Virus record (IMG/VR): IMGVR_UViG_3300013094_000021
Reading direction: 5' to 3' (one strand)
DNA: 51,719 bases
Source of the DNA: a virus
Taxonomy: Duplodnaviria; Heunggongvirae; Uroviricota; Caudoviricetes
This document shows positions 26,953 through 51,185 of this stretch, piece after piece (within the stretch, counting starts at the first letter, position 1; every line of letters starts with the position of its first letter). Made by a program: the position numbers and the translations under genes. The notes beneath the pieces were generated by a model, which made no database searches, was not told where the DNA came from, and worked only from the letters and a program-made list of their open reading frames with translations.

Positions 26953-27374
26953 GGGCGGTTACTGGTTTCGACTATTGTAATCAGTAAATTAATGCAGGTC
27001 GTAGAGCATTGGGCTACGAAAAAAGATGCACAAAATAAATGCTAAAAATGCGTTGAAAAACGCCGTTGCGAAAGTTAAAGAAGTTTACGCTTCTGCTTGT
27101 GAATCGGTTTCCGCCGCTTTGCAGGTTCCTAGCATGGCAATGTCTGTAGCTTAAATTACAGCCGATTAACTGAATGACCCAGATATTTTAGTTAATCGTC
27201 ATATTTCTGGAAAAACGTATATGGATAAATATACGAAAAACAACTATCCAATATTTTTGAAAAAGTTTGTTGATTTAAATGTTCAAAAATTAATCGGTTA
27301 AAAATTAACTAAACCTGTAGAATTAGTTTGTTTATTGTAATAGGACATGGGTTCAACTCCCATACCGTCCACCA
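26953..27374 (+). ncRNA. ssrA: tmRNA
   Basis: GGGCGGT/ACCGTCC-ACCA acceptor with G3-U70, GGTTTCGAC 5' motif, T-arm ATGGG-TTCAACT-CCCAT, helix 2 and pk1 pairings, ATAAAT-GCT resume context. Confidence 0.95.
27041..27154 (+). other. tmRNA tag reading frame (A)AKNALKNAVAKVKEVYASACESVSAALQVPSMAMSVA*
   Basis: Translated from the GCT after pk1/ATAAAT to TAA. Confidence 0.8.
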
Positions 27375-37684: not shown

Positions 37685-37761
37685 ACGGCAATAGCTAAGT
37701 TGAGAGAAGCATTAGTCTCCAAAATTAACATAGATGGGTTCGACTCCCATTTGCCGTGCCA
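37685..37761 (+). tRNA. tRNA-Trp(CCA)
   Basis: ACGGCAA/TTGCCGT acceptor, loop CT-CCA-AA, GCCA end. Confidence 0.85.
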
Positions 37762-37905
37762 CTTTAACCACCGAAAAATAATGTATTTACCTGAATACAA
37801 GTAGTAGGGTAAATGTAGTTTGGACAACATTGAAAATTATATCAACTGTTTGTTCACGCATGGTTACAAGGAAAATGTTAGCTTGTAAAAATCATTTAAT
37901 TTAAT

Positions 37906-37982
37906 GGGGCGTGGGCAACCCGATGGTTGAGTAACTTTTGCAAAGTTATGGATTTTCGATTTGACTTCGACACGCTCCACCA
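37906..37982 (+). tRNA. tRNA-Ala(TGC)
   Basis: G3-U70, loop TT-TGC-AA, T-loop TTTGACT. Confidence 0.8.
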
Positions 37983-38199
37983 GTTTTATGGGCGGTAACG
38001 AAAAGACGTTTCCAGATTCGGTTAAAATCCGTCGCTGTCCACACCAGTTTTCCGCTACTCGCCTTATCCACAAGGTTAATCGTTGGACTCTTTCTAGAGT
38101 AGCATTTCATTTTACAATGGCGCATAAAAGAATTCCATCTTTGGCTACCAGCCAAATTAAAAATATTCTTTTAGATTATTCCTTGTAATATAATTTAAT

Positions 38200-38285
38200 G
38201 GGAGCTTGGGATAGCGGCAATTCCAGCGCGCTGTAAACGCGCCGTCTTTATGGCTTCACTCGTTCGAGTCGAGTAGCTCCCACCA
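38200..38285 (+). tRNA. tRNA-Tyr(GTA)
   Basis: GCGCG-CTGTAAA-CGCGC, variable arm, ACCA end. Confidence 0.9.
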
Positions 38286-38343
38286 TTTTGGAAGTATTTA
38301 ATAACTTCATCTTTTTGTTGGTAGAGTCAACTAACTATTTAAT

Positions 38344-38421
38344 GGTGGTAGTAGCACAACTGATTAGTGCCCGAACTTGTGGAGTTCGCTTATGCGAGTT
38401 TAAATCTCGTTTACCACCCCA
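38344..38421 (+). tRNA. tRNA-His(GTG)
   Basis: G-1:C73 pair, loop TT-GTG-GA. Confidence 0.88.
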
Positions 38422-38427
38422 ATTTAT

Positions 38428-38515
38428 GGAAGCTACCAGAGTTGGCTCTCTGAAAGGTCTTGAAAACCTTGGTGACGTTAATTCGTCAATCGTTCGATGC
38501 GATTAGCTTCCGCCA
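38428..38515 (+). tRNA. tRNA-Ser(TGA)
   Basis: AAGGT-CTTGAAA-ACCTT, variable arm, G73. Confidence 0.9.
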
Positions 38516-38629
38516 TTTTATACTAAAGTTTATCATCATAACGGCATGGTAAAAAGAGCGTTGCAACGCCAACCTTTATCAGAGTCTTTGATAATTGACA
38601 AAGGAAGCCGTCTTTAGTATATTTATTTT

Positions 38630-38806
38630 ATGAATATTCACGCCCCACCAAAACACATACAAGATTTCTTTAAATGTGTTACTTTTCGCGGTAGGCGTTT
38701 TGTTAGAAATGGCAAAACATATATTCGCGCCAAGCATAATGTTTTTCATATAACTATGTATTATTGCTTCGATGATAATTTCATTTATTTTTATGGTGAT
38801 ATCTGA
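38630..38806 (+). CDS. small hypothetical protein (58 aa, not in ORF track)
   Basis: MNIHAPPKHIQDFFKC..., downstream of TTGACA-N17-TATATT. Confidence 0.5.
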   Translation: MNIHAPPKHIQDFFKCVTFRGRRFVRNGKTYIRAKHNVFHITMYYCFDDNFIYFYGDI

Positions 38807-38832
38807 AAAATCATATAAAATACAAAAAAGAA

Positions 38833-38861
38833 TTGACATAAACATTTGATACCTTTATAAT
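38833..38861 (+). promoter_or_regulatory. sigma70-type promoter
   Basis: TTGACA-N17-TATAAT. Confidence 0.8.
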
Positions 38862-38868
38862 ATATCCA

Positions 38869-39114
38869 ATGAATATTGATAGCCTTAAGATTTTTTTGTC
38901 GTTTGCTTGGATTTCTTTAATGATTTTACTTTGTCTATACCTAACTCTTTGGGAGGAAATAAAATACTGGCTAAAAAACAAAGAAGACTTTAAATATATT
39001 TTTATTGATGTGCTTTCTCATATAGTTTTCTATGGTATTGTAATTATACTCGGTCTTTTAACATTTTTAAGTGTTAATAAAATTTTCGATTTTTTTCTTG
39101 GAAGAGGTATTTAG
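38869..39114 (+). CDS. small 2-TM membrane protein
   Basis: Two hydrophobic stretches. Confidence 0.6.
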   Translation: MNIDSLKIFLSFAWISLMILLCLYLTLWEEIKYWLKNKEDFKYIFIDVLSHIVFYGIVIILGLLTFLSVNKIFDFFLGRGI

Positions 39115-39115
39115 A

Positions 39116-39194
39116 GTCTCTTTAATGGCCGCGCCTACGAAGCGATTGGTGCATAATTGAATTTATGTAGGTTTGAGTCCTACAAGAGACACCA
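39116..39194 (+). pseudogene. tRNA-like gene with degenerate D and anticodon arms
   Basis: GTCTCTT/AAGAGAC-ACCA acceptor and intact T-arm; anticodon ambiguous (TGC or CAT). Confidence 0.6.
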
Positions 39195-39203
39195 TTTTTT
39201 GTC

Positions 39204-39296
39204 GGGGGTAAGATGTAAGGTTGCATGGGGAGATTTATAATCTCTATAATCGCTAGATTGGCGTTCTGGGCCGTTCAATTCGGCATACCCCTACCA
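39204..39296 (+). tRNA. tRNA with TAT (Ile) anticodon and ~23-nt variable arm
   Basis: GGGGGTA/TACCCCT-ACCA, GGAGA-TTTATAA-TCTCT, V-arm hairpin CGCTA-GAT-TGGCG. Confidence 0.8.
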
Positions 39297-39305
39297 TTTA
39301 TAATC

Positions 39306-39390
39306 CGGTCTATGGCGGAATCGGCAGACGCACTCCACTCAAAATGGAGCGGGTAAAACCGTGCGATTTCAAGACTCGCTAGACCGACCA
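39306..39390 (+). tRNA. tRNA-Leu(CAA)
   Basis: CTCCA-CTCAAAA-TGGAG, variable arm, A73. Confidence 0.9.
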
Positions 39391-39397
39391 ATTTTAT

Positions 39398-39486
39398 TGC
39401 TCTATGGTGGAATTGCTAGACACCCTCGATTTAAAACCGAGTGCGAATAAAGTAGCGTGTCGGTTGGAACCCGACTAGAGCAACCA
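39398..39486 (+). tRNA. tRNA-Leu(TAA)
   Basis: Loop TT-TAA-AA, variable arm, A73. Confidence 0.88.
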
Positions 39487-39503
39487 GCTTTATAATTTTT
39501 AAT

Positions 39504-39588
39504 GGCGGTGTGGCGAAATTGCTAGACGCGCTCGATTTAGGGTCGAGTGGGGAAACCCGTGGGGATTGAACTTCCTCTACCGCTACCA
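39504..39588 (+). tRNA. tRNA-Leu(TAG)
   Basis: CTCGA-TTTAGGG-TCGAG, variable arm. Confidence 0.9.
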
Positions 39589-39689
39589 TTTAACCTGCAA
39601 CAAGGAGTTGGCCGCAACTCGACTGAGATTTCTCGGTTAAAGTAGGTGCAACTATGGCGGCTCCGCCAAATTATTTTAATTTATTTTAT

Positions 39690-39780
39690 GGTTACGAGGC
39701 CGAAGTTGTCGAGGCGTCACACTGTCACTGTGAATAGGAGCAATCCATTCTAGCGGGTTCATGTCCCGTCGTAACCGCCA
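39690..39780 (+). tRNA. tRNA-Asp(GTC) with 19-nt variable arm
   Basis: TCACA-CTGTCAC-TGTGA, V-arm GGA-GCAA-TCC, G73. Confidence 0.85.
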
Positions 39781-39879
39781 CTTTTTTAAAGGTTATGATG
39801 ATTTTTGTTCGAGGCTGGAGTGGCAAGCCGAAAGAGCAGAAAAAGCTCATAAAAATATTAAATCAACGATAGATTCAAT

Positions 39880-40077
39880 ATGAAAATCAAAAATATAAAA
39901 TTAAAATCCGTCATTTTAGAAATAGAAGGTAAGGAAGTAAGGTATGACAATTTTGGAATATTCGGATGGGAATCCAACCAGAACTCATTACTGCAATGTA
40001 GAGGCGTTGACCTAACGGTTAGAGTTGGCAAAAAGGATATAACAATTCCCCTAGAAAGTTCTTATGGAGAAAATTAA
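39880..40077 (+). CDS. hypothetical protein
   Basis: ORF track; between tRNAs. Confidence 0.6.
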   Translation: MKIKNIKLKSVILEIEGKEVRYDNFGIFGWESNQNSLLQCRGVDLTVRVGKKDITIPLESSYGEN

Positions 40078-40089
40078 AGATTTATAAAT

Positions 40090-40164
40090 AGAGCGTTGGT
40101 CGAGCGATTAGGCATCGGTCTGCAAAACCGAATTAGATTGGTTTGACTCCAATACGTTCTTCCA
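40090..40164 (+). tRNA. tRNA-Cys(GCA)
   Basis: TCGGT-CTGCAAA-ACCGA, U73. Confidence 0.88.
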
Positions 40165-40172
40165 TTTTTTTC

Positions 40173-40201
40173 TTGACCAATCAAGAAAAAAGATTTATAA
40201 T
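40173..40201 (+). promoter_or_regulatory. sigma70-type promoter
   Basis: TTGACC-N17-TATAAT. Confidence 0.7.
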
Positions 40202-40208
40202 ATCCAAT

Positions 40209-40433
40209 ATGAATAAACTATACCTAGTTGGCTATATTCCAGATATCCTCAACAAAGAAAAAGAATGGGAATTTGTTGGTGTCTTTACCGATATAAAAAA
40301 AGCAAGGAGAGCGGCGAAACTACCTTCTTGTTTTATAGGCGTAGTTAAAATAGACAAAGACTTTGGAATGAAATCGGAGGCGTGGCCGGAAGGCGAATAT
40401 GAATGGCCCAATATTAAGAAGATTTTAAAATAG
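40209..40433 (+). CDS. hypothetical protein
   Basis: ATG 40209 after promoter; track start lies inside tRNA-Cys. Confidence 0.6.
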   Translation: MNKLYLVGYIPDILNKEKEWEFVGVFTDIKKARRAAKLPSCFIGVVKIDKDFGMKSEAWPEGEYEWPNIKKILK

Positions 40434-40452
40434 TTTTGTGAAGTCCTATATC

Positions 40453-40528
40453 GCCGCGATGGGTGACTGATGAAACCGTCCGACTGCAAATCGGAATTTG
40501 AAAAGTTTGATTCTTTTGCGCGGCTCCA
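40453..40528 (+). tRNA. tRNA-Cys(GCA), second copy
   Basis: TCCGA-CTGCAAA-TCGGA, U73. Confidence 0.82.
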
Positions 40529-40602
40529 TTTTAAAAATCTCTTTACAAAAAGAAAAAACCATGCTATTATTAAAGTGTAACAATTTACAATAAAAAATAA
40601 CT

Positions 40603-40818
40603 ATGTCAGCTAAATATAAAAATGGCTCCTCCGTCTCAATTAATGATTTAATCCTTTTCCAAACCGTAGATGATACGGTTTCGGTAGGAACGCTCATTTC
40701 TGACAATGGCGATGGAACTGGAACGGCTCAAATTACCGACGCTAACGGAAATGTCCACAGCGAAGGTGTGATTTTTGACCTATCTTATAAGGTGGGCGAC
40801 TTGTTTCCAGATTTGTGA
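40603..40818 (+). CDS. hypothetical protein
   Basis: ORF track; preceded by a GTGTAA motif. Confidence 0.6.
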   Translation: MSAKYKNGSSVSINDLILFQTVDDTVSVGTLISDNGDGTGTAQITDANGNVHSEGVIFDLSYKVGDLFPDL

Positions 40819-40826
40819 ATTTTAAT

Positions 40827-40904
40827 CGGGGTATCGCCTAACTTGGTATGGCAGCACGTTTGGGGCGTGACATAATTTCAGTTCAAATCTGAATATCCCG
40901 ACCA
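40827..40904 (+). tRNA. tRNA-Pro(TGG)
   Basis: CGGGGTA/TATCCCG acceptor, loop TT-TGG-GG. Confidence 0.88.
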
Positions 40905-41015
40905 TTTGCCAGTTTAATTTAAACTGGATGTGGTGTGCCGATGATAGTCAAGTGGTTTGCCACGAAAACTACCTGCACCAGTTTTAGCACTTTCTATAAA
41001 AAGTGCAATTTAATT

Positions 41016-41101
41016 TGCGGAATGCGAGAAGTCCGGTATCTCAGGAGGCCCATAACCTCCCGCCTAGTGCCTCGTGGGTTCAAATCCCACTTCCGCTACC
41101 A
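41016..41101 (+). tRNA. tRNA-Met(CAT), initiator-like, with 13-nt variable region
   Basis: T1:T72 mismatch, GAGA/TCTC D-stem, GGAGG-CCCATAA-CCTCC. Confidence 0.8.
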
Positions 41102-41107
41102 TTTAAT

Positions 41108-41182
41108 GCGCTTGTAATTCAGAGGCAGAATGTCGCTCTTCCAAAGCGAACGTCGGGATTTCAAAATTCCCCAAGCGCTCCA
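41108..41182 (+). tRNA. tRNA-Gly(TCC)
   Basis: TCGCT-CTTCCAA-AGCGA, U73. Confidence 0.9.
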
Positions 41183-41284
41183 TTTTTGCAACTCAGGTCA
41201 TATTGCGAAGAAAATACGGCGGTATTTTACTCCTATTTTTCCGACCTGAAATGTATTGAACACTTGCAACATTTTAATTCTAAT

Positions 41285-41373
41285 TGGGGTGTGGCGGAAT
41301 TGATAGACGCAGAAGTTTGTTAAACTTCCGAGAGAAATCTCACCTACAGGTTTAATCCCTGTTGCCCCAGCCA
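41285..41373 (+). tRNA. tRNA with GTT (Asn) anticodon on a Leu-type class II body
   Basis: GAAGT-TTGTTAA-ACTTC, 17-nt V-arm with GAGA-GAAA-TCTC, G73. Confidence 0.85.
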
Positions 41374-41448
41374 TTTATGAAAAAATATTCAAAGATACCA
41401 AACTCATATCCAAACGAAGTTTCTTGATGAATTTAAGATAGTATTAAT

Positions 41449-41536
41449 GCGTTCGTAGGTAAGTGGCCGAAACCAACGGGCCTTTAACCCGTAGTCTAAA
41501 AGACCATCGTGAGTTCGACTCTCACCGGACGCACCA
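41449..41536 (+). tRNA. tRNA-Lys(TTT) with 16-nt variable arm
   Basis: ACGGG-CCTTTAA-CCCGT, V-arm GTCT-AAA-AGAC, A73. Confidence 0.85.
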
Positions 41537-41551
41537 TATAAAATCACTAAC

Positions 41552-41626
41552 GGCCCTATCGAATATAAATTAATTCGCTACTTTCTCAAAGTAGAAAAGG
41601 CGGAGGATAACCGGCTAGGGCTACCA
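41552..41626 (+). tRNA. tRNA-Glu(CTC), atypical D and T loops
   Basis: CTACT-TTCTCAA-AGTAG; T-loop AGGATAA. Confidence 0.6.
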
Positions 41627-41634
41627 ATTTTAAT

Positions 41635-41708
41635 GGGGCGATAATTTAATGGTAAAATAGAATCTTGATAAGATTCCTTTCTCAGTCCGATTCGGAGTCG
41701 CCCTACCA
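41635..41708 (+). tRNA. tRNA-Ile(GAT)
   Basis: GAATC-TTGATAA-GATTC, A73. Confidence 0.82.
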
Positions 41709-41717
41709 TTTTTTTTG

Positions 41718-41746
41718 TTGACTTTTATCTATAAAGAAGTTATACT
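41718..41746 (+). promoter_or_regulatory. sigma70-type promoter
   Basis: TTGACT-N17-TATACT. Confidence 0.7.
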
Positions 41747-41786
41747 TTAAATATTATTCGATTCATATTAAAAAATAAAATAAATT

Positions 41787-42023
41787 ATGTCCGACAATTT
41801 AAGTTTTAAAAATCTATGGAGAAACTTTTCAGATATTGATTTGAAAACTAAGGGGTTCTATTTTTCTAGACCAAAAAACAATCCAACCGCTAATTATATA
41901 CAAAGTCTTATAATACTAAACGAATCTCATTTGACTGGCCGGATTACCATAAACGGCTGCTCATACCAGTATAATAAAAATTGGTCTGAATTAATCGAAA
42001 TTGTCGGGCCGATAGATTTGTAA
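41787..42023 (+). CDS. hypothetical protein
   Basis: ORF track; downstream of promoter. Confidence 0.6.
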   Translation: MSDNLSFKNLWRNFSDIDLKTKGFYFSRPKNNPTANYIQSLIILNESHLTGRITINGCSYQYNKNWSELIEIVGPIDL

Positions 42024-42158
42024 TTAAAATGAAACACATTGAACCAAACCAGCGCGCATATTTTTTAGCGATGGAAGTTTCATTGCTTTTTGAATCGCTC
42101 GGCTTCGACTCAAGTATATTTCTTTTTTGGATGGTTGGAAATTTAAATAAATAAAACT

Positions 42159-42575
42159 ATGAAACAAGAATCAATCCATAGAAATCTCGTTAAATTTAGA
42201 GTCTGGGATGGAATTATGTTTATGGAGCCAAACATTGCAAATCCTTTTAATTTTATAGAGGATGGCAATAAATACGAGATTTATGTTGCTGGCGACAGAG
42301 TAATACAGCAATACACTGGACTGAAAGACAAGTATGGAAAAGAAATTTACGAGGGCGACCTGATAAATTTCACCATACAAGGCTTCGCGCACGAAGCTTA
42401 TCCAGAAGATATAAAATCTGCCGAAGTTTGGTATAATCCAAAGGACGCCTGTTTTTGTTTTGGCCGATACAAAACTAATGATTTTATTGATTATTATTTT
42501 TCAATGGCAGACAGGATAGATTTAAAAACTATGGAAATTGTTGGTAATATTTTTGAAAAAAATGAAAAAATTTAA
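42159..42575 (+). CDS. YopX-like protein
   Basis: KFRVWD, QYTGLKDKYGKEIYEGD and EIVGNIFE. Confidence 0.85.
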   Translation: MKQESIHRNLVKFRVWDGIMFMEPNIANPFNFIEDGNKYEIYVAGDRVIQQYTGLKDKYGKEIYEGDLINFTIQGFAHEAYPEDIKSAEVWYNPKDACFCFGRYKTNDFIDYYFSMADRIDLKTMEIVGNIFEKNEKI

Positions 42576-42687
42576 AACTAGCAAACCAGTGAGATTGAGC
42601 CATTCCTTTATTAAAAAAGCTCAAAAAATTCACTCTGATGTAATTAAAGAATCAAAAACTTGGAATAAAGAAAAGTGAAAATTTAAT

Positions 42688-42763
42688 GGCCGCGTCGTCT
42701 AACGCCTAGGACTCTTCGTTTTCAGCGAAGTATATGCGGGTTGAAATCCCGTCGCGGCTTCCA
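42688..42763 (+). tRNA. tRNA-Glu(TTC)
   Basis: CTTCG-TTTTCAG-CGAAG. Confidence 0.88.
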
Positions 42764-42771
42764 ATTTTAAT

Positions 42772-44117
42772 GTCAACAACATCTAGTCTAAAGCCATAGA
42801 TGCTTGTAAGCTACCGAAGCCTACGATTGGCGAGTTGACTTTCGCCTGCCACGCATAATAATCGCTTATTGAGCATGGGAGTTTGGAACGTAGAGCAATG
42901 TTACACGCAGCGTTACAATCCGCATGGAGTATTTGCCCGTCTTTTCCGATATACCTACCGCCGATACGCTTTCCATCTAATTTGCCTGTGCGATGGTCAA
43001 TTTGACTCGTATATGCGGGACTAACCGTTATCACCTGTTTATTATTCAGGAGTGCCTTATAGGTAAGAATCCGTCTAAGTTCAAACATTGGAACTTGACT
43101 AATCCTATTTTTATTTTGATACTTATGTTTTTTAACCTTAATAGATTTAAGATTCTCCAATACAATCGTATCAGCCCTTGTATCGGAAATTATTTTATTA
43201 GCTAAATGGTGACTAAAATTCTTGTTTTTATTCGATTCTTTGCGTTTGAGTTTTTTTAGTTGACGTTTTGCTGATTTAGAGTCTTTGGATTTTGACTGTA
43301 ATTTACGCTTATTAAACCTTAATTTTCTCTTTTCACCATTAAACTTCTTATCTATGTATAGATTACCTTCACTGGTAGCGGCATTAACGCGGCAACCCAA
43401 ATCAATTCCTAACGCAAGTTTCTTTTGCGATAAAACCTCTGGAATATCAAAAGTTAAACATATCCAAACTTCTCCATCTTTTTCAAACAAAAGCGGGTCA
43501 CAAAAACGATATTTGCTAATTAACTCTTGTAATTTAGGGTAAATATAAGGGGAACATTTGACTCGTTTTTCTAAACTTATGATACTGAAAATACCATTTT
43601 TATACGAATACGTTCTTTTGTCTAAACGGATTGAAAGTTTCTTCTTTTCGGGCGGTTTATCTAATTTTTGCTTATTGGATTTAATACTCCGATATGCTGA
43701 CAAAACAGATTGTTCTGCACTTATCACTACCTGACTTGGAATTTCAGGTTGACAACTCCTAAACTTAGTATAAAATTGTCCATGCAACAAAACGATAGAA
43801 TTTTTGGGAATATTAAACTTAACTTTGGAACATTCATTCCAAGCGAAACGCTGGCTTTCGAGCATACTGACAATCTTATTCTTGTCAGAATCGCTCTGGA
43901 AAACCAATCTCGTATTATATGTTAATTTACTCACTACAATATATTATACACGGAAAAAGACGAAATATCCAATTTATTTTCATATACTGAAAGATTTTCT
44001 TGACTTTTGAGTAAAAATAGTGTAAATTAATAAAGATAATTATGCTAAACTCACGCAAATATTTTTTCTCATATCCTAGCCTAAAGGCATAGGATTTTCC
44101 GAAAAAAGAGACATTTT
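42772..44117 (-). mobile_element. non-autonomous IS200/IS605-family element (TnpB only)
   Basis: On the minus strand: TTCAT | left end with GAAA guide and ATCCTATGCC-TTTA-GGCTAGGAT hairpin; right end CAAG plus hairpin ending TTGAC; both guide/cleavage tetranucleotide pairs fit the IS608 pairing rule. Confidence 0.75.
42783..43934 (-). CDS. tnpB: TnpB RNA-guided endonuclease
   Basis: RuvC I GIDLG, II VLENL, III HADCNAA.NI; Zn-finger cysteines absent (TSQIDHRTG). Confidence 0.92.
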   Translation of the reverse strand: MSKLTYNTRLVFQSDSDKNKIVSMLESQRFAWNECSKVKFNIPKNSIVLLHGQFYTKFRSCQPEIPSQVVISAEQSVLSAYRSIKSNKQKLDKPPEKKKLSIRLDKRTYSYKNGIFSIISLEKRVKCSPYIYPKLQELISKYRFCDPLLFEKDGEVWICLTFDIPEVLSQKKLALGIDLGCRVNAATSEGNLYIDKKFNGEKRKLRFNKRKLQSKSKDSKSAKRQLKKLKRKESNKNKNFSHHLANKIISDTRADTIVLENLKSIKVKKHKYQNKNRISQVPMFELRRILTYKALLNNKQVITVSPAYTSQIDHRTGKLDGKRIGGRYIGKDGQILHADCNAACNIALRSKLPCSISDYYAWQAKVNSPIVGFGSLQASMALD

Positions 44118-44129
44118 ATGAATTTTAAT

Positions 44130-44204
44130 CCGCTAGTAACTCAGTATGTAGAGTGCCTCCCTGAAAAGGAGGAAGCCGTCATTTCGCCATGACCTAGCGG
44201 GCCA
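44130..44204 (+). tRNA. tRNA-Phe(GAA)
   Basis: CCTCC-CTGAAAA-GGAGG; unusual G73. Confidence 0.82.
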
Positions 44205-44209
44205 CTTTT

Positions 44210-44464
44210 ATGAGAATTGATAAAATTATAAATTGGGATTTTGAAAAAGTTCACGCCGAACTAAAGTCTAATAACAAAAAATTTGGACTTGTTTGTTTTC
44301 GTGGGTTTGAATGGGGCGGCTCTCCGTCAACACTCTTTATTTTCGACTCCATGAATGAAGTAAGAGAAAAAATACTAGAGCAAACAAACGGAAAATATGA
44401 ATACTTTGGAATAGTTGATGATGATTTTCATAGTATGAGCTTTAATATATACAAAAGACACTAA
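44210..44464 (+). CDS. hypothetical protein
   Basis: ORF track; between tRNAs. Confidence 0.6.
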   Translation: MRIDKIINWDFEKVHAELKSNNKKFGLVCFRGFEWGGSPSTLFIFDSMNEVREKILEQTNGKYEYFGIVDDDFHSMSFNIYKRH

Positions 44465-44469
44465 TTAAT

Positions 44470-44544
44470 AGAAGCGCAGCACGAAGGCCGTGCAACTCGT
44501 TTACACCGAGAAGGCTAGGGTTTCAAAATCCCTCGCTTCTACCA
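44470..44544 (+). tRNA. tRNA-Val(TAC)
   Basis: AGAAGCG/CGCTTCT acceptor, loop TT-TAC-AC. Confidence 0.85.
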
Positions 44545-44629
44545 TTTTGTAGGTTAAAAAATCAACGCCCTCACTATTTTACTTGACATAAAGCTCGAAA
44601 CCATTTATCATAAAATAGTATAAATTCTA

Positions 44630-44863
44630 ATGAAAATCTCGTGCGTCCAATGCCCACACTGTTTCGACTTGATTTATTCAAGAGCTAGGCACGATTTCCG
44701 CTATTGCACTTGCGGCAAGTGCGCCGTAGATGGCGGGCGCGATTATACAAAAGTTGTCGGTGACGGAAGTATTTTAGAAATAAATATTTTAGCATCCGAA
44801 AAAGTCCTTTATAACGACTGGAACAAACAAATTAACAAGTTTGGTTTAATTAAAACTAATTAA
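44630..44863 (+). CDS. small Zn-ribbon protein
   Basis: CPHC...S..RHDF..CTCG...VDGG. Confidence 0.7.
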   Translation: MKISCVQCPHCFDLIYSRARHDFRYCTCGKCAVDGGRDYTKVVGDGSILEINILASEKVLYNDWNKQINKFGLIKTN

Positions 44864-44870
44864 TCGTATT

Positions 44871-44944
44871 GGATGTATAGTATAATGATATTACAATCCT
44901 TTCATACGGGAAAGACTATGGTTTGATTCCATATATAGCCACGA
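44871..44944 (+). tRNA. tRNA-Met/Ile2(CAT), degenerate, ends ACGA instead of ACCA
   Basis: Loop TT-CAT-AC, T-arm TATGG-TTTGATT-CCATA. Confidence 0.6.
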
Positions 44945-44953
44945 ATTTTAAAA

Positions 44954-45220
44954 ATGAAAATATTTAGCATAGTAACTCCAAAATCATACGAGGATATAGA
45001 AAATTTAAAAATTCCGACATTTTTAAAAAACAAAAACCATGAAGTATTTTCTTATCCAGATGGAGACTTAAAAAAAGGCGAGCATTATTTAGTTACCGAC
45101 GTTGAATTTAATAAGGCGGCAAACTCTCTCGCCATTAAGATTAAAGGATGCAGGGTAATAATTAAAGCCACCGGAAAGGAAGGTTTTTGGACTGCTGAAT
45201 GTTTTAAATGTATTGAATAA
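44954..45220 (+). CDS. hypothetical protein
   Basis: ORF track. Confidence 0.6.
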   Translation: MKIFSIVTPKSYEDIENLKIPTFLKNKNHEVFSYPDGDLKKGEHYLVTDVEFNKAANSLAIKIKGCRVIIKATGKEGFWTAECFKCIE

Positions 45221-45672
45221 ATGATTAATAAAATTTAACTTACCAAATTGACGATTAAACAATAAAAATCCATGAACAAGAAAAACTTCAATAGAAACAT
45301 CCATATTTTCGATAAAGTTCTTTGCGTTGACGATGAATTTAATTCCATAGCGTCCTTCCAAAATTAGGTAAAGTATATACAGTTCGAGGGATTTATTATC
45401 ATGCTCAAACCGATAAAATTGGGATTCATCTTCAAGAAATCGAAGGCGCTTTTAACTTAAAAATTGGCACGGAGCAGGGTTTTAACATTGACAGATTCCA
45501 AAGAGTGCATTAATATATAAATATTATGTATATACCTATAATTTATTTAATTTCTTTTTTATTATCAATTCCATTTTCATTATATATTCCTTTTATTTTT
45601 TGTAATTATTTTTCAAAAGCGCCAAGCACACGAATGCTTGAACACTGCTATTGCCAAAATAGATAATTTAAT

Positions 45673-45747
45673 GGGTTCGTAGCTTAATGATAAAGCACTA
45701 TTTTTGTAAAATAGTTGATGTCGGTTGAAATCCGACCGTTCCCTCCA
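45673..45747 (+). tRNA. tRNA-Thr(TGT)
   Basis: CTATT-TTTGTAA-AATAG; two T:T mismatches in the acceptor stem. Confidence 0.75.
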
Positions 45748-45756
45748 TTTTTTAAC

Positions 45757-45830
45757 TGACGCCTAGTGTAATGGTAGCACAGGAACCTTTGGAGTTCTTA
45801 GAAATGGTTTAATTCCATTGGCGTCAACCA
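45757..45830 (+). tRNA. tRNA-Gln(TTG)
   Basis: TGACGCC/GGCGTCA acceptor, loop CT-TTG-GA. Confidence 0.88.
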
Positions 45831-46020
45831 ATTTTAAAATGAAAAAACACCAAGTAATAATGAACATAACCGTTGGCGGAATAGTGTCGGTTTACGCCAA
45901 AGATAAAAAAGCCGCCGAAAATAGAGCCAGAGAAAAACTACAGGAAATCGGCGAAGCGGCCTTTTGCGACGTTGGGCATCGAGATATTATGTTTTGCGGT
46001 TTTTTAGAAAATAAGAAAAA

Positions 46021-46251
46021 ATGAAAAACTCCGAACCATCCACCAGAGATAAGCTAAACGCTTTCAACTTGGGATATTATCATTCAAAAATAAAATCAAA
46101 AAACAATCCATACGATATTGATTTTGAAAATTGTCTTTACTTGAATTATGAATCAGGCTACAATGAACACTGTGAAAACAAAAAAGAAAACTGTAAAAAA
46201 ATGTCAAGTCTGCAAAGCTCCGAACGCCAAACTTCGCCGCCAGAGAACTAA
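46021..46251 (+). CDS. hypothetical protein with loose RMF-like pattern
   Basis: AF..GY........NPY............GY. Confidence 0.45.
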   Translation: MKNSEPSTRDKLNAFNLGYYHSKIKSKNNPYDIDFENCLYLNYESGYNEHCENKKENCKKMSSLQSSERQTSPPEN

Positions 46252-46360
46252 TTTTGAAAACGATAAACTCAATTTCGCCATTCTTTGCAAAGAGTGCCAA
46301 AACGAGGCAGACTTATACTGGTCTAGCTTGATATCTGATTTTTATAATGATGTTATTTGA
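46163..46360 (+). CDS. small CxxC...CxxC protein
   Basis: CQVC and CKEC; overlaps previous ORF. Confidence 0.5.
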   Translation: MNTVKTKKKTVKKCQVCKAPNAKLRRQRTNFENDKLNFAILCKECQNEADLYWSSLISDFYNDVI

Positions 46361-46368
46361 GTCCCTAT

Positions 46369-47055
46369 ATGCCTAAGCCCAAAAGAATTATATTAATCAG
46401 ACACGGGGAAAGCGAGGGTAACGTGGATAGAAAAACATATTCCACAAAACCAGATTATGCCGTAAGACTAACTGAAACCGGAAAAATTCAAGCCAAGGAT
46501 GCCGGAAAACTAATTAAATCATTAATAAAAGACCAAAGCTACGGATGTTATTATTCTCCATACTTTCGCGCCCGCGAAACAATGGATTTAGCCATAAAAG
46601 AAATAGATAATAATCTCGATTATAATAAAAACAGATTTTTTAAAAAAGAAGAGCCAAGAATAAGAGAGCAGGAATATAGCGGGAAATTAATCGGAAAACA
46701 GATGGGCGACAAATTTGAAAAAGAAAGGGCTGCTTACGGCAAATTCTTTTACCGCCTTGAAGGTGGAGAAAGCGGCTGCGATGTTTATGATAGAATATCT
46801 GATTTTATAGGAACTCTGCACAGAGATTTTGAAAAACCGTATTTTCCAGATAATTGCCTGATATTTGGTCATGGAATGGCAAATCGCCTTTTTGTTATGA
46901 AATTTTTTCACGTTCCAATAGAAGAATTTGAAACTTGGAAAAATCCCAACAATGGAGAAATATATATTTTACAACTACTACCAAGTAATAGATACGAACT
47001 TATAACCGAAATCCAAAAACATCCTAAACCCTATGGATGGATATATAAAAAATAA
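46369..47055 (+). CDS. histidine phosphatase (phosphoglycerate mutase family)
   Basis: LIRHGES, SPYFRARET, IREQE, GGES and FGHG. Confidence 0.92.
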   Translation: MPKPKRIILIRHGESEGNVDRKTYSTKPDYAVRLTETGKIQAKDAGKLIKSLIKDQSYGCYYSPYFRARETMDLAIKEIDNNLDYNKNRFFKKEEPRIREQEYSGKLIGKQMGDKFEKERAAYGKFFYRLEGGESGCDVYDRISDFIGTLHRDFEKPYFPDNCLIFGHGMANRLFVMKFFHVPIEEFETWKNPNNGEIYILQLLPSNRYELITEIQKHPKPYGWIYKK

Positions 47056-47060
47056 AAATT

Positions 47061-47273
47061 ATGATTTTCAAATACCATTTCAACAAACCCGCAAGCCTTA
47101 AGCTCAAAAGACCTCTTTTATCCTTGCATTATTCCGGCGCTTGTCATATCATAGATAAAATACATTGCAACGTGCCGACTTATTCTCATAATAATAAGAG
47201 ACAACCAAGGGTAGTTATAAAAGGAAAAGCCAATAAAATAACAATTCAAAAAGGCGTTGCCACCATAAATTAA
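47061..47273 (+). CDS. hypothetical protein
   Basis: ORF track; co-oriented. Confidence 0.6.
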   Translation: MIFKYHFNKPASLKLKRPLLSLHYSGACHIIDKIHCNVPTYSHNNKRQPRVVIKGKANKITIQKGVATIN

Positions 47274-47378
47274 AACATGACACCTCAACAATACAACCAT
47301 ATTTGCACTGGAATCTTTTTAATTGGATTAATAAATATAGTGAATTTTTTATTACTTTATTTTAAAAAATAAAAATAT

Positions 47379-47465
47379 GGCTACATGGCAGAGATGAAAT
47401 GCACTCCCGTGCTAAGGGAAGTGTGGGTAAAACCAGCGTTGAGTCGTTCTCAACTGTAGCCGCCA
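47379..47465 (+). tRNA. tRNA-Ser(GCT)
   Basis: GGCTACA/TGTAGCC acceptor, loop GT-GCT-AA, variable arm, G73. Confidence 0.82.
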
Positions 47466-47637
47466 ATTTATGAAATGCGAAATACATCCAAGATATAAAG
47501 TAATAAGAAAACCAAGAAGCAAAAAATCAAACTGTATATGTTCAAATATTTACAAAAATAAGAAATCCAATGTAAAAGATGAAATTTAGGAATACGCTAG
47601 ACACGATTTAAGATAATCAATACTTTTATAAAATAAT

Positions 47638-47826
47638 ATGAGAAACGCCGTAAGAATCAGAAGTAAAAAAATACCTGTATTTGGCAAAATAAATCAATTT
47701 AAGTCAAAATGCAGGTGCGGCAATTGGCAAAAATGGGGCACAACCGGACTAATATTAGACACAGTAGAATGCTCAAATTGTAAAAATACAATTGAAATAG
47801 ATTTTTTTGATAAAAATCCTGATTGA
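47638..47826 (+). CDS. small Cys-pair protein
   Basis: CRCG and CSNC. Confidence 0.5.
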   Translation: MRNAVRIRSKKIPVFGKINQFKSKCRCGNWQKWGTTGLILDTVECSNCKNTIEIDFFDKNPD

Positions 47827-47859
47827 CTTTTAGAACGGAATTCTTTAAAATAATTTTCT

Positions 47860-48060
47860 ATGAAAAACAGATTCACCTATCAAATCGTTGACTCCGAAAC
47901 CAAAGAAGTCATATCTTCGGTTGATTGCAATAAATATGCAGAAATAAAGGCCGACCTTTTATCTTCAAAAATAGCTTGCGAAAAACTCTTCTTCAATTAT
48001 GCAGTTCATATCTATGGCGCTCAAAAAGTAAATGAAATCGTTAATAAATTTATTGATTAA
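47860..48060 (+). CDS. hypothetical protein
   Basis: ORF track; upstream TTGACT box. Confidence 0.55.
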   Translation: MKNRFTYQIVDSETKEVISSVDCNKYAEIKADLLSSKIACEKLFFNYAVHIYGAQKVNEIVNKFID

Positions 48061-48066
48061 AATTTT

Positions 48067-48144
48067 GGTCTTGTGGCGCGAATTGAATCAGGCAGCAATT
48101 TCCTAAATTGTTTTATGCGGGTTTGAATCCCGCCAAGACCACCA
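48067..48144 (+). tRNA. tRNA-Arg(CCT)
   Basis: GCAAT-TTCCTAA-ATTGT. Confidence 0.85.
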
Positions 48145-48170
48145 TTTTCTAAGGCTAGGTTGTTGAACCG

Positions 48171-48202
48171 CCGCACGGAATTAATTTTCTGTGCGGTTTT
48201 TT
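48171..48202 (+). terminator. intrinsic terminator closing the tRNA region
   Basis: CCGCACGGAA...TTCTGTGCGG followed by a T-run. Confidence 0.8.
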
Positions 48203-48250
48203 GTTTTTATATGTAGTTGACTTTTAAAATTTATGGTTTATAATAATTTT

Positions 48251-48709
48251 ATGCCGAAAGCCATAAACATTTGCAAAGACGAGGCTAAAGAATTTAAGTA
48301 TTTACCAAATAATTCCGTTCTTATTTCAATTAATGAAATAGAGAGAGAACTTTATCCATTAGCTATAGATAGGAGCGATGCCAGAATTCTAACCGTAAGA
48401 TTTTCCGACGTTACCCATTGTAGGAAATCTATGGACGGCAAAATTGACTACAAGCCAATTAATGATGAAATAGCTTTAAAAATTTTAGATTTTATAAACA
48501 TCCATTCTGGTAAAGATGTTTTTATTCATTGTGCCGCCGGAGTGTCTAGAAGTGCGGCGGTAGCTCTTTATTTAAATTTGTTTCATGGATATGAGTTGAA
48601 ACCTAGATTTTGGCAAACCAGCAACCCCAATAAATACGTTATTGGACAATTAATATTTTCCAGACATTGCAGTAGATGGGAAAATAGAGACTTAACACAA
48701 AATAAATAA
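48251..48709 (+). CDS. Cys-based (PTP/dual-specificity-like) phosphatase
   Basis: FIHCAAGVSRSAAVA (CX5R). Confidence 0.88.
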   Translation: MPKAINICKDEAKEFKYLPNNSVLISINEIERELYPLAIDRSDARILTVRFSDVTHCRKSMDGKIDYKPINDEIALKILDFINIHSGKDVFIHCAAGVSRSAAVALYLNLFHGYELKPRFWQTSNPNKYVIGQLIFSRHCSRWENRDLTQNK

Positions 48710-48720
48710 ATACTTATCAA

Positions 48721-49251
48721 ATGTCAGATTTAATGTATAACGAAGTTCCGGTAATTGGCAAAAAATATAATTTTGGAGATTGGAAATTATATTCCATACA
48801 TGACGATAAACAAATAAAAGGCTTTTTCGGCGAAATGCGCTGGCTATCAAATTTTTGGGACTCTCCGTGCTATTATCAAGGAACGCTCTACCCGTCATCG
48901 GAAAATGCGTATCAGGCGGCAAAGGTTCATATTGATGATAGATTAGCTTTATTACATTGCTCGGCGGCAGATTCCAAAAAAGTATGGAAAACTCTTAGAA
49001 AAATTCCATATACAAAAGAACAATGGGATGATAAAAAATATGAGGTAATGGCTACCATACTTTTTAGTAAATTCTTAATAAATAAAGATTTAAGACGAAA
49101 ACTATTAGATACCGGCAATAAATACTTAGAAGAAAGCAATCATTGGCATGACAATGGGTGGGGGTTTTGCGTTTGTGAAAAATGTAAAAACAAAGAACAC
49201 AAAAATATGCTAGGTAAACTATTAATGAAAATTAGAGATTTCTGGAGGTAA
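48721..49251 (+). CDS. NADAR (YbiA-like) protein
   Basis: WLSNFW, SSENAYQAAK, W...K..VM, KF, LLDTG..YLEE, WG and NMLGKLLM. Confidence 0.92.
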   Translation: MSDLMYNEVPVIGKKYNFGDWKLYSIHDDKQIKGFFGEMRWLSNFWDSPCYYQGTLYPSSENAYQAAKVHIDDRLALLHCSAADSKKVWKTLRKIPYTKEQWDDKKYEVMATILFSKFLINKDLRRKLLDTGNKYLEESNHWHDNGWGFCVCEKCKNKEHKNMLGKLLMKIRDFWR

Positions 49252-49282
49252 TATAAATTTAGATAAAAAAACTTAAATTTTT

Positions 49283-49606
49283 GAAGAGATTATAACGCTG
49301 ATATAAGTGAAAGCCTTATATTAGAGGAAACTCGCCGCTGCACAGCAGATGATTGGGAGAGTTATGACCTGTATCCTTGAAAAACTCGTATTATTGGTAG
49401 AAATACCATAGATAAGCAGGTTTGGCCGATATAAAGGGGTATTAGAATAAGACCACTCGCGAACACCACAAATTAGCAGCAACCCTAAATCGTTAAAGGC
49501 TAGTGCTGGCCGATGTAAAAACTAGGTTGGGGCAGTCGTTATTAGCACACGACCATTGAAAAATGAGAAAAATGTTATATTAACACAGAACGGCGGTTAA
49601 CTCTTC
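49283..49606 (+). ncRNA. rnpB: RNase P RNA
   Basis: CR-I GAGGAAACTCGCCGC, CR-V ACAGAACGGCGGTTA, P4 TCGCCG/CGGCGG, P1 GAAGAG/CTCTTC, P5 GCTGC/GCAGC. Confidence 0.85.
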
Positions 49607-49650
49607 TTAAAATTTGTTGACTTTATCTTTAAAACCTTTATAATTTTAAT

Positions 49651-49869
49651 ATGTCAATTAAATCTAAAAAATGGTATGAGAATCAAATCTTAGCTCTAGA
49701 GAATGCCGCTAATAATACTGCATATTTAGCACTTCCGGTTACTGAATTTATGAATCCAAAAATTGCAGAAGAATCATTTAAAGCCAATGCTGGAGTAAGA
49801 AAAGTGAGTTCTGATATATACTCTAGACTAAATAAATTAAAAGCCGAATATAATCTTTATTATAGATGA
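49651..49869 (+). CDS. hypothetical protein
   Basis: ORF track; after TTGACT/TATAAT. Confidence 0.6.
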   Translation: MSIKSKKWYENQILALENAANNTAYLALPVTEFMNPKIAEESFKANAGVRKVSSDIYSRLNKLKAEYNLYYR

Positions 49870-50132
49870 AACTTGATAGACCTACAGAAATAAAAACTTA
49901 CAAATCTTTTTCCATAACAAGAATAGAAAAATTTATTCCTTTGTGGGTAAGAATAGATTATGCCAGATACACTTCCGAATTTGAAAAAATTAGATGCTTA
50001 ATGCCATATAAGGCCGACCATTGCTTTAAATGTAATTCAAAATTTAAATGTAATGAAATTATCTCTCTAGTTGGCTTGAAATATATAGGAAATAAAGTAT
50101 TTTGCAAAGGCTGTGCCAATGAAATATCCTAA
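49866..50132 (+). CDS. small CxxC...CxxC protein
   Basis: CFKC and CKGC. Confidence 0.55.
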   Translation: MKLDRPTEIKTYKSFSITRIEKFIPLWVRIDYARYTSEFEKIRCLMPYKADHCFKCNSKFKCNEIISLVGLKYIGNKVFCKGCANEIS

Positions 50133-50343
50133 ACACCTATACCGCCGCGATGATGGCGAGAGATTTTCATATATAGGAAGTGGCCTATATTGGATGGATA
50201 AAAGTATGATGCCAAAAGACTTTAAGGAATATCAATATCCTTATGAACTGTTAATGAGAAGTGGATTTAAAACTAAATTAAAAGATTGCGTTATAGAAAA
50301 ATATATAAGTAAAAATGATGGACATGGCGACGACGATGATTAA
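50113..50343 (+). CDS. hypothetical protein
   Basis: ORF track. Confidence 0.55.
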   Translation: MPMKYPKHLYRRDDGERFSYIGSGLYWMDKSMMPKDFKEYQYPYELLMRSGFKTKLKDCVIEKYISKNDGHGDDDD

Positions 50344-50345
50344 AC

Positions 50346-51185
50346 CTAATAACTCCATATAAATCCACCCGCCGTTTTTCTGTTTCCGTTACAAGCCTCG
50401 CTTATACATGAATAGCTTATATTTAATGAGTCGCCAGCTTCTTTATTGGAATACCATATTTTTATCAATTCATTATTAATAGGATTGATTTGTTTGACTT
50501 GTTTGTTTTTGGGGTTATTTTTTATTTCAATATATTTATTATATTTTCTGTAAAGTCCCATTTTATCATTTTCATAATCTTTATATATATAATTTAAAAA
50601 TGATATTAATTCTTTATATTTACCAAGCCTCAATGTAGAATGTTTGTGATTTAAATAATTAATACTTCTATATATTTTCGGATTAGCTTTAAAATTTTCT
50701 TCCAGAAATTTGATATGTCCGCTCCAATCTTGTTCGTATGTTGACGCAAAAGCTAGTCTATGACACCCCTTTCCCAATATAACTGTTAAACAGCCATCGG
50801 CGTCTAAATAACCTCGCCACCAATAATTTTTCAATTCATCGGGAATTATTGATAATATTTTTTCTATATTTATATTTGATTTTTTATCAAATCCCAACGA
50901 TATTAAATATTTTGCTAAAAACCTATCATTTAAATTATAGGTGACAGAATGTTTATAATTTCTCGTTTCGCTTACTCTATTTCTAATATATTTTTTCCAT
51001 TTTGCATTAGTCTCGAAAGATTGAAAAAAACTTTCTATCTCAACAAAATCTTCTAAAATCATCGAAAAGCTTATATATCTGGAATAAGTTTTACTCCTTA
51101 CTGTAGTAAGGCATCCGTCGCCCCATAATAAACCTAAAACATAAGCCTTTTCTTTACAATCAATTTTAAAGTTATCTTCATTCAT
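50346..51185 (-). CDS. free-standing double-motif LAGLIDADG homing endonuclease with NUMOD1-like C-terminal HTH
   Basis: AYVLGLLWGDG, WWRGYLDADG and ISEACNGNRKTAGGFIW. Confidence 0.88.
   Translation of the reverse strand: MNEDNFKIDCKEKAYVLGLLWGDGCLTTVRSKTYSRYISFSMILEDFVEIESFFQSFETNAKWKKYIRNRVSETRNYKHSVTYNLNDRFLAKYLISLGFDKKSNINIEKILSIIPDELKNYWWRGYLDADGCLTVILGKGCHRLAFASTYEQDWSGHIKFLEENFKANPKIYRSINYLNHKHSTLRLGKYKELISFLNYIYKDYENDKMGLYRKYNKYIEIKNNPKNKQVKQINPINNELIKIWYSNKEAGDSLNISYSCISEACNGNRKTAGGFIWSY

Follow-up and report, generated by a model that had tools for sequence, protein, structure and literature searches.

The window analysed here, the 51,719-nucleotide (nt) stretch of IMG/VR record IMGVR_UViG_3300013094_000021, is part of an uncultured large phage, and its tRNA array holds five genes, with the anticodons UAU, GUC, CAU, GUU and UUU (Ile, Asp, Met, Asn and Lys, and thus none for Leu, Ser, Tyr or selenocysteine, Sec), whose variable regions are 13–23 nt long. 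Reviews and textbooks limit the bacterial long variable arm to tRNAs for Leu, Ser, Tyr and Sec and describe bacterial tRNA genes as lacking structural diversity. Our analysis showed that the five genes are real phage tRNAs, and that tRNAs combining class I identity with a long arm belong to recurrent phage lineages and are not a system specific to this window. We consider it probable that the five are genuine cognate decoders of such lineages, in which a long variable region stands on tRNAs whose amino acids usually go with a short one. The array, the five genes and their variable regions are as follows (base pairs, bp; model R1 is described below).

37685–48144, plus strand: tRNA array, about 30 tRNA genes for all 20 amino acids (ARAGORN, Rfam, model R1 and a cloverleaf scan)
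39204–39296, plus strand: tRNA-Ile(UAU), 93 nt including CCA; anticodon 39236–39238; G1·U72, A73, 4-bp D stem
39246–39268, plus strand: Ile(UAU) variable arm, 23 nt; CGC/GCG helix closing the 7-nt loop TAGATTG
39690–39780, plus strand: tRNA-Asp(GUC), 91 nt; anticodon 39724–39726; G73, G2:C71, G10, C38; 3-bp D stem, 11-nt D loop
39734–39752, plus strand: Asp variable arm, 19 nt; GGA/GCAA/TCC and a 6-nt 3' tail
41016–41101, plus strand: tRNA-Met(CAU), initiator-like, 86 nt; anticodon 41051–41053; A73
41061–41073, plus strand: Met variable region, 13 nt; no stable hairpin (RNAfold 0.0 kcal/mol)
41285–41373, plus strand: tRNA-Asn(GUU), 89 nt; anticodon 41319–41321; G73; 3-bp D stem, 11-nt D loop
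41329–41345, plus strand: Asn variable arm, 17 nt; GAGA/GAAA/TCTC and a 4-nt 3' tail
41449–41536, plus strand: tRNA-Lys(UUU), 88 nt; anticodon 41483–41485; A73, C33; 3-bp D stem, 11-nt D loop
41493–41508, plus strand: Lys variable arm, 16 nt; 3–4 bp helix (GTC/GAC with loop TAAAA in ARAGORN) and the 4-nt 3' tail CATC

On manual reading, no stem of the acceptor, D, anticodon or T arm is incomplete in any of the five, which have a 7/5 acceptor/T configuration and an encoded CCA. Each has a variable region of at least 10 nt, as class II tRNAs do, that of Met being without structure. The D arm is of class II type (3-bp stem, 11-nt loop) in Asp, Asn and Lys, and has a 4-bp stem in Ile and Met. ARAGORN detects the Met, Asn and Lys genes and gives their variable regions 13, 17 and 16 nt. 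The Rfam tRNA model RF00005, with a gathering score of 29, gives Lys 55.1, Asp 41.0 and Asn 40.7 bits and places the extra bases as an insertion between the anticodon and T arms; on Met it matches the T arm alone, at 14.5 bits. Ile(UAU) at 39204 was detected neither by ARAGORN nor by Rfam, even at E<=10. We rejected an intron as the source of the extra bases, which are too short and wrongly placed for bacterial tRNA introns. An earlier reading of the window from its letters alone (the sequence-only reading) had given variable regions of 23, 19, 13, 17 and 16 nt on Ile, Asp, Met, Asn and Lys, with G73 on Asp and Asn and A73 on Lys, Ile and Met, and both lengths and discriminators are borne out. 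It was equally right that the array has one tRNA each for Asp, Asn and Lys: ARAGORN, Rfam, model R1 and the cloverleaf scan found no second one in the window. Moreover, an independent Logan contig from run SRR6476446, 100% identical to the window over 40805–46150, spans the Met, Asn and Lys genes.

Comparison of the variable regions with shuffles shows that the hairpins of Asn (z score -4.55, with 0.7% of shuffles equally stable), Lys (z -4.6, 1.3%) and Asp (z -2.65, 3.6%) are unusually stable. The Ile variable region taken alone is not significant (z -0.8), and support for its helix comes from covariation in the family described below. Folding of the whole molecules predicts a five-arm cloverleaf for Ile and Asp, as the minimum-energy structure for Asp, and, for Asn and Lys, a hairpin in the variable arm along with the acceptor and T arms. 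The earlier claim of hairpins in four of the five therefore holds, for Asn, Lys and Asp by the shuffle test and for Ile by covariation, with Met as the member without structure, and the GNRA caps assigned to the Asp and Asn arms can be read in their loops as GCAA and GAAA.

The Met gene has a U1xU72 mismatch, G2:C71, C3:G70, A11:U24 and C33. Among bacterial initiator marks, U1xU72 and A11:U24 are present, and so are G30:C40 and G31:C39, but the 29:41 pair is A:U and position 33 is C. The combination of U1xU72 with C33 is also seen in another phage initiator-like tRNA. A further CAU tRNA lies at 44871–44941. C33 stands in both Lys(UUU) (41483–41489) and Met(CAU) (41049–41055), at a position where U is nearly universal; in our sample of phage tRNAs it was seen in 34 of 1742, including none of 89 Lys(UUU) and one of 122 Met(CAU).

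Ile(UAU) proved to belong to a family. An IMG/VR pattern scan made for another purpose had yielded 120 tRNA-rich loci, in which ARAGORN finds 23 distinct Ile(UAU) tRNAs, ten of them 90–95 nt long. From these ten long relatives, leaving the window sequence out, we built the covariance model R1, which scores window 39204–39296 at 65 bits (E 4.7e-14) and every other window tRNA at least 25 bits lower; it also picks up at least three more members in the IMG/VR loci that ARAGORN had overlooked. In the alignment of 13 members, 96.7% of cells are paired overall and 90% in the arm helix, where three of the four pairs have changed on both sides. The family arm is 19–24 nt long and its helix closes a 7-nt loop with the motif YAGAUNR, which the window loop TAGATTG fits; the unusual G1·U72 pair of the window gene is a family trait, found in 8 of the 13 members. 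With its UAU anticodon, A73, G1·U72 and long arm with a YAGAUNR loop, the window tRNA fits the R1 family definition, and its arm is nearly identical to that of locus L044. To judge from these sequences, selection on the Ile(UAU) arm is clear. The YAGAUNR loop is kept across very different contigs (L018–L126), as is a G27·U43 wobble.

Conservation among close kin can be read in one syntenic relative, and for the four tRNAs other than Met it is visible in wider families only. This relative, Logan contig SRR29078204_44527, whose ribonucleotide reductase (RNR) extein is 83% identical, has no array at the expected place and a single Met(CAU) tRNA, so that among close kin arm conservation is readable for Met only. 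That tRNA shares the 3-nt spacer, the D loop and the T loop with the window copy and has a short variable region, and the Met extension is thus recent or dispensable, with selection on it absent. Arm conservation in relatives is seen for Ile(UAU), whose helix covaries, and fails for Met, whose extension is not kept in the closest relative. The Asn arm is almost the same as that of the Asn tRNA of locus L171, though the acceptor and anticodon stems differ, a pattern that suggests selection on this arm as well. The 3' half of Lys is similar to an Asn tRNA of another contig. IMG/VR scans with the flanking HSP20 and histidine-phosphatase proteins, made for array-bearing close relatives, gave no match or at most 29% identity; BLASTN of the array and its single tRNAs against 50,697 phage records returned nothing for Asn, Asp or Ile; and the only readable DNA reached through YopX homologues was a contig identical to the window.

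The BLAST search with the Lys tRNA, by contrast with those for Asn, Asp and Ile, led to two cultured phages, Mesorhizobium phage Cp1R7A-A1 (MT188704), in which Lys(CUU), Lys(UUU) and Asn(GUU) tRNAs of 88 nt each are annotated, and Brevundimonas phage vB_BgoS-Bajun (ON529858), with a Trp tRNA of 88 nt and an Asn tRNA of 86 nt. All these long arms form GNRA-capped hairpins. In our first IMG/VR sample (107 loci), 44 of 1005 tRNAs with class I anticodons were at least 82 nt long, and variable regions of at least 10 nt were found on 10 of 23 Ile(UAU), 5 of 51 Asn, 8 of 91 Met, 7 of 96 Lys and 3 of 44 Trp tRNAs, along with a few Cys, Thr, His, Gln and Pro tRNAs; none of the 40 Asp tRNAs of that sample had one. 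A second IMG/VR scan directed at Asp then gave at least 30 distinct long-arm Asp(GUC) tRNAs, and in the loci that contain them 24% of the other class I tRNAs are long-armed, compared with 4.1% in the first sample (odds ratio 7.4, p 3e-15). In these loci the long-arm copies often adjoin a short-arm copy of the same isotype. Loci L152, L169, L171, L239 and L241 have a long- and a short-arm copy of one isotype together (Asp, Asn, Met, Glu, Cys, Thr or Pro). Against shuffles, 121 long variable regions had a median z of -2.0, and 47% were more stable than 95% of the shuffles; at the same time, arm sequences are highly diverse among phages.

Such tRNAs are therefore common in phage sets, in cultured phages annotated in GenBank as in IMG/VR, and the proposal that they form a system peculiar to this window, and its claim to uniqueness, have to be given up. 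The same holds for the link drawn from Asp, Asn and Lys to the class IIb synthetases: long arms in other phages are also found on Ile, Met, Cys, Trp, Glu, Val, Thr, Gln, His and Pro tRNAs, and because of this spread the arm is not tied to class IIb enzymes in general. Full-text literature searches, with subscription journals outside their coverage, returned no published account of phage tRNAs that join class I identity to a long arm, and the phage variant is apparently undescribed. The reverse exception also exists, as a short variable region of class I type is present in about 46% of distinct phage tRNA-Leu calls (L007–L126), an example being the 72-nt Leu(CAG) of Mesorhizobium phage Cp1R7A-A1.

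With regard to charging, the sequence-only reading had left two options, a remodelled tRNA set that stays cognate or tRNAs mischarged by the seryl- or leucyl-tRNA synthetase (SerRS, LeuRS). The discriminators within the window fit both, and the identity argument therefore rests on the wider sample. There, 112 of 125 long-arm class I tRNAs have the discriminator that is most frequent among short-arm tRNAs of their isotype, the modal bases being G for Asp, Asn and Trp, U for Cys, C for His and A for Lys, Ile, Met, Val and Pro. Among the 15 nearest neighbours of each acceptor/T half, the same isotype accounts for 13 with Lys, 11 with Asp, 9 with Met and 5 with Asn, the Lys and Asp counts being inflated by the way samples were drawn; the five Asn neighbours are short-arm Asn tRNAs, and none of the 15 is Leu or Ser. 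For Asp, G73, G2:C71, G10, the GUC anticodon and C38 correspond to the identity set of E. coli AspRS. The geometry of the arms points the same way. In Ser arms the 3' tail measures 1 nt in 70 of 80 cases and the stem is mostly of 4–7 bp, and in Tyr arms the tail measures 3 nt in 15 of 20 and the stem is of 3 bp in 19 of 20. The long arms on tRNAs for Asn, Asp, Lys, Trp and Cys, with stems of 3–4 bp and tails of 3–4 nt, are Tyr-like and not Ser-like. In the window, the Asn, Asp and Lys arms have stems of 3–4 bp and tails of 4–6 nt, outside the Ser type (5–7 bp, 1-nt spacer), and the five do not show the Leu or Tyr identity given by A73 with a Leu-type core or with a GUA anticodon.

The codons read by the five tRNAs have their usual meaning. 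In conserved columns of a 120-sequence RNR alignment, AAA or AAG stands for Lys in 14 of 15 cases, AAT or AAC for Asn in 10 of 10, GAT or GAC for Asp in 15 of 17 and ATA for Ile in 3 of 3; the Met codon keeps Met, and codons of the five tRNAs never align with Ser, Leu or Tyr. The genome thus uses the standard code, and genome-wide recoding is excluded. These codons are also in heavy use: AAA ranks first in the window (86.6 per 1000), AAT second, ATA fourth and GAT sixth, and about 30% of all window codons are read by the five tRNAs. Discriminators, acceptor/T halves, arm geometry, codon meaning and codon demand agree, in favour of the cognate part of the remodelled-but-cognate option. At the level of sequence the five carry cognate identity marks, and we infer that they are expressed and charged with their cognate amino acids.

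Several observations weigh against the view that all five are cognate decoders with a selected arm. G73 of Asp and Asn also fits SerRS, and A73 of Lys, Ile and Met also fits LeuRS and the tyrosyl enzyme TyrRS; the nearest acceptor/T neighbours of Ile(UAU) are of mixed isotypes and hence uninformative; the D arm of Asn resembles the Leu D arms of the array; and the two Lys tRNAs of the cultured Mesorhizobium phage have U73 instead of A73. In the first IMG/VR sample, long arms were not clustered in loci beyond chance (10 loci observed, 8.5 expected). The Met extension is without structure and absent from the homologue in L248, the closest related phage, and here at least the extra bases may be an insertion that the tRNA tolerates.

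Some of these points would suit mischarging, in which the arm would recruit SerRS, LeuRS or TyrRS and the Asp, Asn, Lys, Ile and Met codons would partly be read as Ser, Leu or Tyr in a deliberate mistranslation like that of nematode nev-tRNAs or bacterial allo-tRNAs. The long arm with G73, G2:C71 and C11:G24 on Asp and Asn overlaps the known SerRS determinants, A73 of Lys, Ile and Met would suit LeuRS and TyrRS, and the Leu-like D arm of Asn and the Ser-like D arms that accompany U73 in the two Mesorhizobium phage Lys tRNAs go in the same direction; there is also a precedent in nev-tRNA-Ile(UAU), which receives Leu (PMC3333845). Yet the discriminator tracks the anticodon in the 112 of 125 long-arm tRNAs mentioned above, with A, G, U and C all occurring, the arm geometry is not Ser-like, the acceptor/T halves are those of the cognate isotype, and the G73 of Asn is at odds with LeuRS, which requires A73. 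Moreover, with the codons concerned making up about 30% of the total and standard at conserved sites, such mis-incorporation would harm the phage's own proteins. The earlier suggestion of mischarging by SerRS or LeuRS is thus not supported by discriminators, geometry, acceptor/T halves or codon meaning, and we regard mischarging as very improbable. Even less credible is that the five include pseudogenes in decay or false predictions, as might be thought from the failure of both standard programs to detect Ile(UAU), from the failure of Rfam to detect Met, and from the irregular 3-nt spacer and C33 of the latter. Ile reaches 65 bits with an independent family model in which G1·U72 is common; the Met tRNA shares its spacer with the syntenic homologue, and U1xU72 and C33 with an initiator-like tRNA of another phage; each of the five has intact stems and an encoded CCA; and the Logan contig over Met, Asn and Lys is 100% identical.

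A more serious rival, though still an unlikely one, is that the arms are functionless by-products, either leftovers of a class II scaffold with a changed anticodon or insertions at a tolerant site, on tRNAs that are ordinary decoders. The unstructured Met extension that its syntenic homologue lacks speaks for such an origin, as do the Leu-like D arm of Asn, the resemblance of the Lys 3' half to the Asn tRNA of another contig, which hints at an anticodon switch or a recombination of halves, and the great diversity of arm sequences across phages. At the same time, in the Ile(UAU) arm the loop motif is conserved and the stems covary, the Asn arm is conserved better than the stems of its own tRNA, hairpin stability is far above that of shuffles, and long arms co-occur strongly in some arrays, often next to a short copy. 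Alternatively, the five might not be decoders at all, and instead be decoys or regulators that sequester or inhibit proteins that bind tRNA, host tRNA nucleases among them, or that prime a phage process. According to the AriB study, viral tRNAs might, when over-expressed, compete for the nuclease with those of the host, and other phages often have a long-arm beside a normal copy of the same isotype; in the window, however, a set that covers 20 amino acids has no other gene for Asp, Asn or Lys, the acceptor stems of the five are intact, CCA is encoded and discriminators are cognate, and a decoy role is improbable.

On the reading that we prefer, the five tRNAs would decode their own amino acids and serve the most used codons of the phage, AAA, AAT, ATA and GAT, while the arm would alter how tRNA-binding proteins perceive the molecule near the junction of anticodon stem and core. 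The arm may in this way let the tRNA escape host defence tRNA nucleases, with the cognate synthetase, EF-Tu and the ribosome still accepting it. AriB of the PARIS system cleaves Lys(UUU), Thr(UGU) and Asn(GUU) tRNAs between positions 40 and 41 and also reads loop-distal positions; a bacterial Schlafen cleaves Lys(UUU) and Met(CAU) and leaves cleavage signatures on Ile(CAU), at 30/31; and Retron-Eco7 cuts host tRNA-Tyr in the variable loop and is neutralised by the tRNA-Tyr of phage SP15, whose variable loop, 5 nt longer than that of the host, is needed for this (PMC12673091). The arm of the window tRNAs emerges beside positions 40–43, next to the AriB 40/41 site. Compared with E. coli, which may not be the host, the window Lys has C33, C39 and C41 in place of U33, U39 and A41 (E. 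coli Lys reads U36-A-A-U-C/A41), positions 39 and 41 being the two that make the tRNA-Lys of phage T5 resistant, and the window Asn(GUU) has A39. Because AriB and this Schlafen target the same isotypes and SP15 needs a lengthened variable loop, a role in defence is plausible and the nuclease resistance suggested in the sequence-only reading has published precedent, and by analogy with these systems we put forward an anti-nuclease function of the arm as a tentative proposal. Among possible functions we rank nuclease escape first, followed by a tolerated by-product, a decoy and mischarging. A broader conjecture, again a possibility that we hold with some doubt, is a general and so far undescribed counter-defence principle by which many phages keep a marked tRNA set, with normal identities and an extra arm, often beside a normal copy. 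The arm of such a set might sterically block anticodon-arm nucleases of the AriB, PrrC, Schlafen, OLD or PtuAB types or, alternatively, might flag phage tRNAs for phage factors, with cognate synthetases still charging them.

If the five tRNAs are charged correctly, AspRS, AsnRS, LysRS, IleRS and MetRS must tolerate or use the extra arm, with consequences for tRNA identity rules and for the design of orthogonal tRNAs. As it is, tRNAs outside the Leu/Ser/Tyr/Sec arm rule read about 30% of the codons of this phage, in a design that recurs in many phages. If the arm protects from defence nucleases, it would be a structural route of counter-defence beside the known point mutations of the anticodon loop. 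The cultured phages MT188704 and ON529858 make the questions of charging and nuclease resistance directly testable. There is also an annotation gap, with standard programs overlooking the window Ile(UAU) and ARAGORN at least three further IMG/VR members of its family.

Elsewhere in the window are genes for a class II RNR, DnaB, a UvsX/RecA-like recombinase, a primase and glycosyltransferases. The RNR gene (6664–9597, minus strand) has a LAGLIDADG intein, which is also present in P0053 (72% identity), while close homologues of about 650 residues are without it. A transfer-messenger RNA (tmRNA) at 26953–27374 scores 124.5 bits with Rfam and encodes a 30-residue tag ending in MAMSVA; ARAGORN finds none in the syntenic relative. 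The array region has a G+C content of 35%, in an AT-rich phage; CCA is encoded in nearly all of its tRNAs, and small open reading frames and one TnpB-like gene lie between them. This gene, at 42783–43934 on the minus strand and so opposite to the array, is TnpB/IS605 OrfB-like with a Cas12f1-like TNB domain. Four tRNA-like genes of the array are not called by ARAGORN or Rfam:

37906–37982: Ala(UGC), with G3·U70 (coordinates in the order listed)
39116–39194: Phe(GAA)-like element with an oversized D region
41552–41626: Glu(CUC)-like gene with an odd T loop
47379–47465: Ser(GCU) with an odd T loop

At 46357–49251, inside or just past the array, are a histidine phosphatase, a dual-specificity-phosphatase-like protein and a NADAR-domain protein, for which a tie to tRNA repair or counter-defence is possible. 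A candidate RNase P RNA at 49283–49606 was rejected, as Rfam, searched with all families over 49200–50350 at E<=1, gave no match.

Compared with canonical class II tRNAs, Asp, Asn and Lys of the window share the arm hairpin, often with a GNRA cap, the 3-bp D stem and the enlarged D loop, and with phage tRNA-Tyr they share a stem of 3–4 bp and a 3' tail of 3–4 nt or more; they differ in that anticodons, discriminators and acceptor/T halves are those of Ile, Asp, Met, Asn and Lys, and in that Ile and Met retain a class I D arm. Bacteria without lysidine, such as Mycoplasma mobile, have an ordinary class I tRNA-Ile(UAU) whose UAU anticodon likewise reads AUA directly, and to this the phage family adds an arm of 19–24 nt, the YAGAUNR loop and G1·U72. 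The nematode nev-tRNAs and the nov-tRNAs of eukaryotes (Hamashima 2012, PMC3333845; Hamashima 2016) also combine a class II body with class I anticodons, including Ile(UAU). The nev-tRNAs, however, are derived from tRNA-Leu, have A73 in 115 of 115 genes, receive Leu, and serve rare codons at a low level of expression (PMC3333845), whereas the phage discriminators track the anticodon, with G73 on Asp and Asn, and the window tRNAs read the most used codons; the five do not show the A73 with LeuRS determinants, whatever the anticodon, that defines nev- and nov-tRNAs. The allo-tRNAs of bacteria and some phages (Mukai 2017, PMC5389517) likewise have a long arm on many anticodons, but are marked by an 8/4 or 9/3 acceptor/T configuration, Sec-like D arms and Ser identity with G73 or U73 (PMC5389517), while all five tRNAs of the window parse as 7/5 and fall outside that definition. 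Closest in possible function are the phage tRNAs that escape nucleases, those for Lys, Thr and Asn of T5 in the case of AriB and the Tyr tRNA of SP15 in that of Retron-Eco7: the isotypes Lys(UUU) and Asn(GUU) are shared, the window Lys is substituted at 39 and 41, and SP15 Tyr also uses a longer variable loop. The published escapers alter a few bases or lengthen the arm of a class II tRNA, and none of them places an arm on a class I tRNA, as the phage of the window does.

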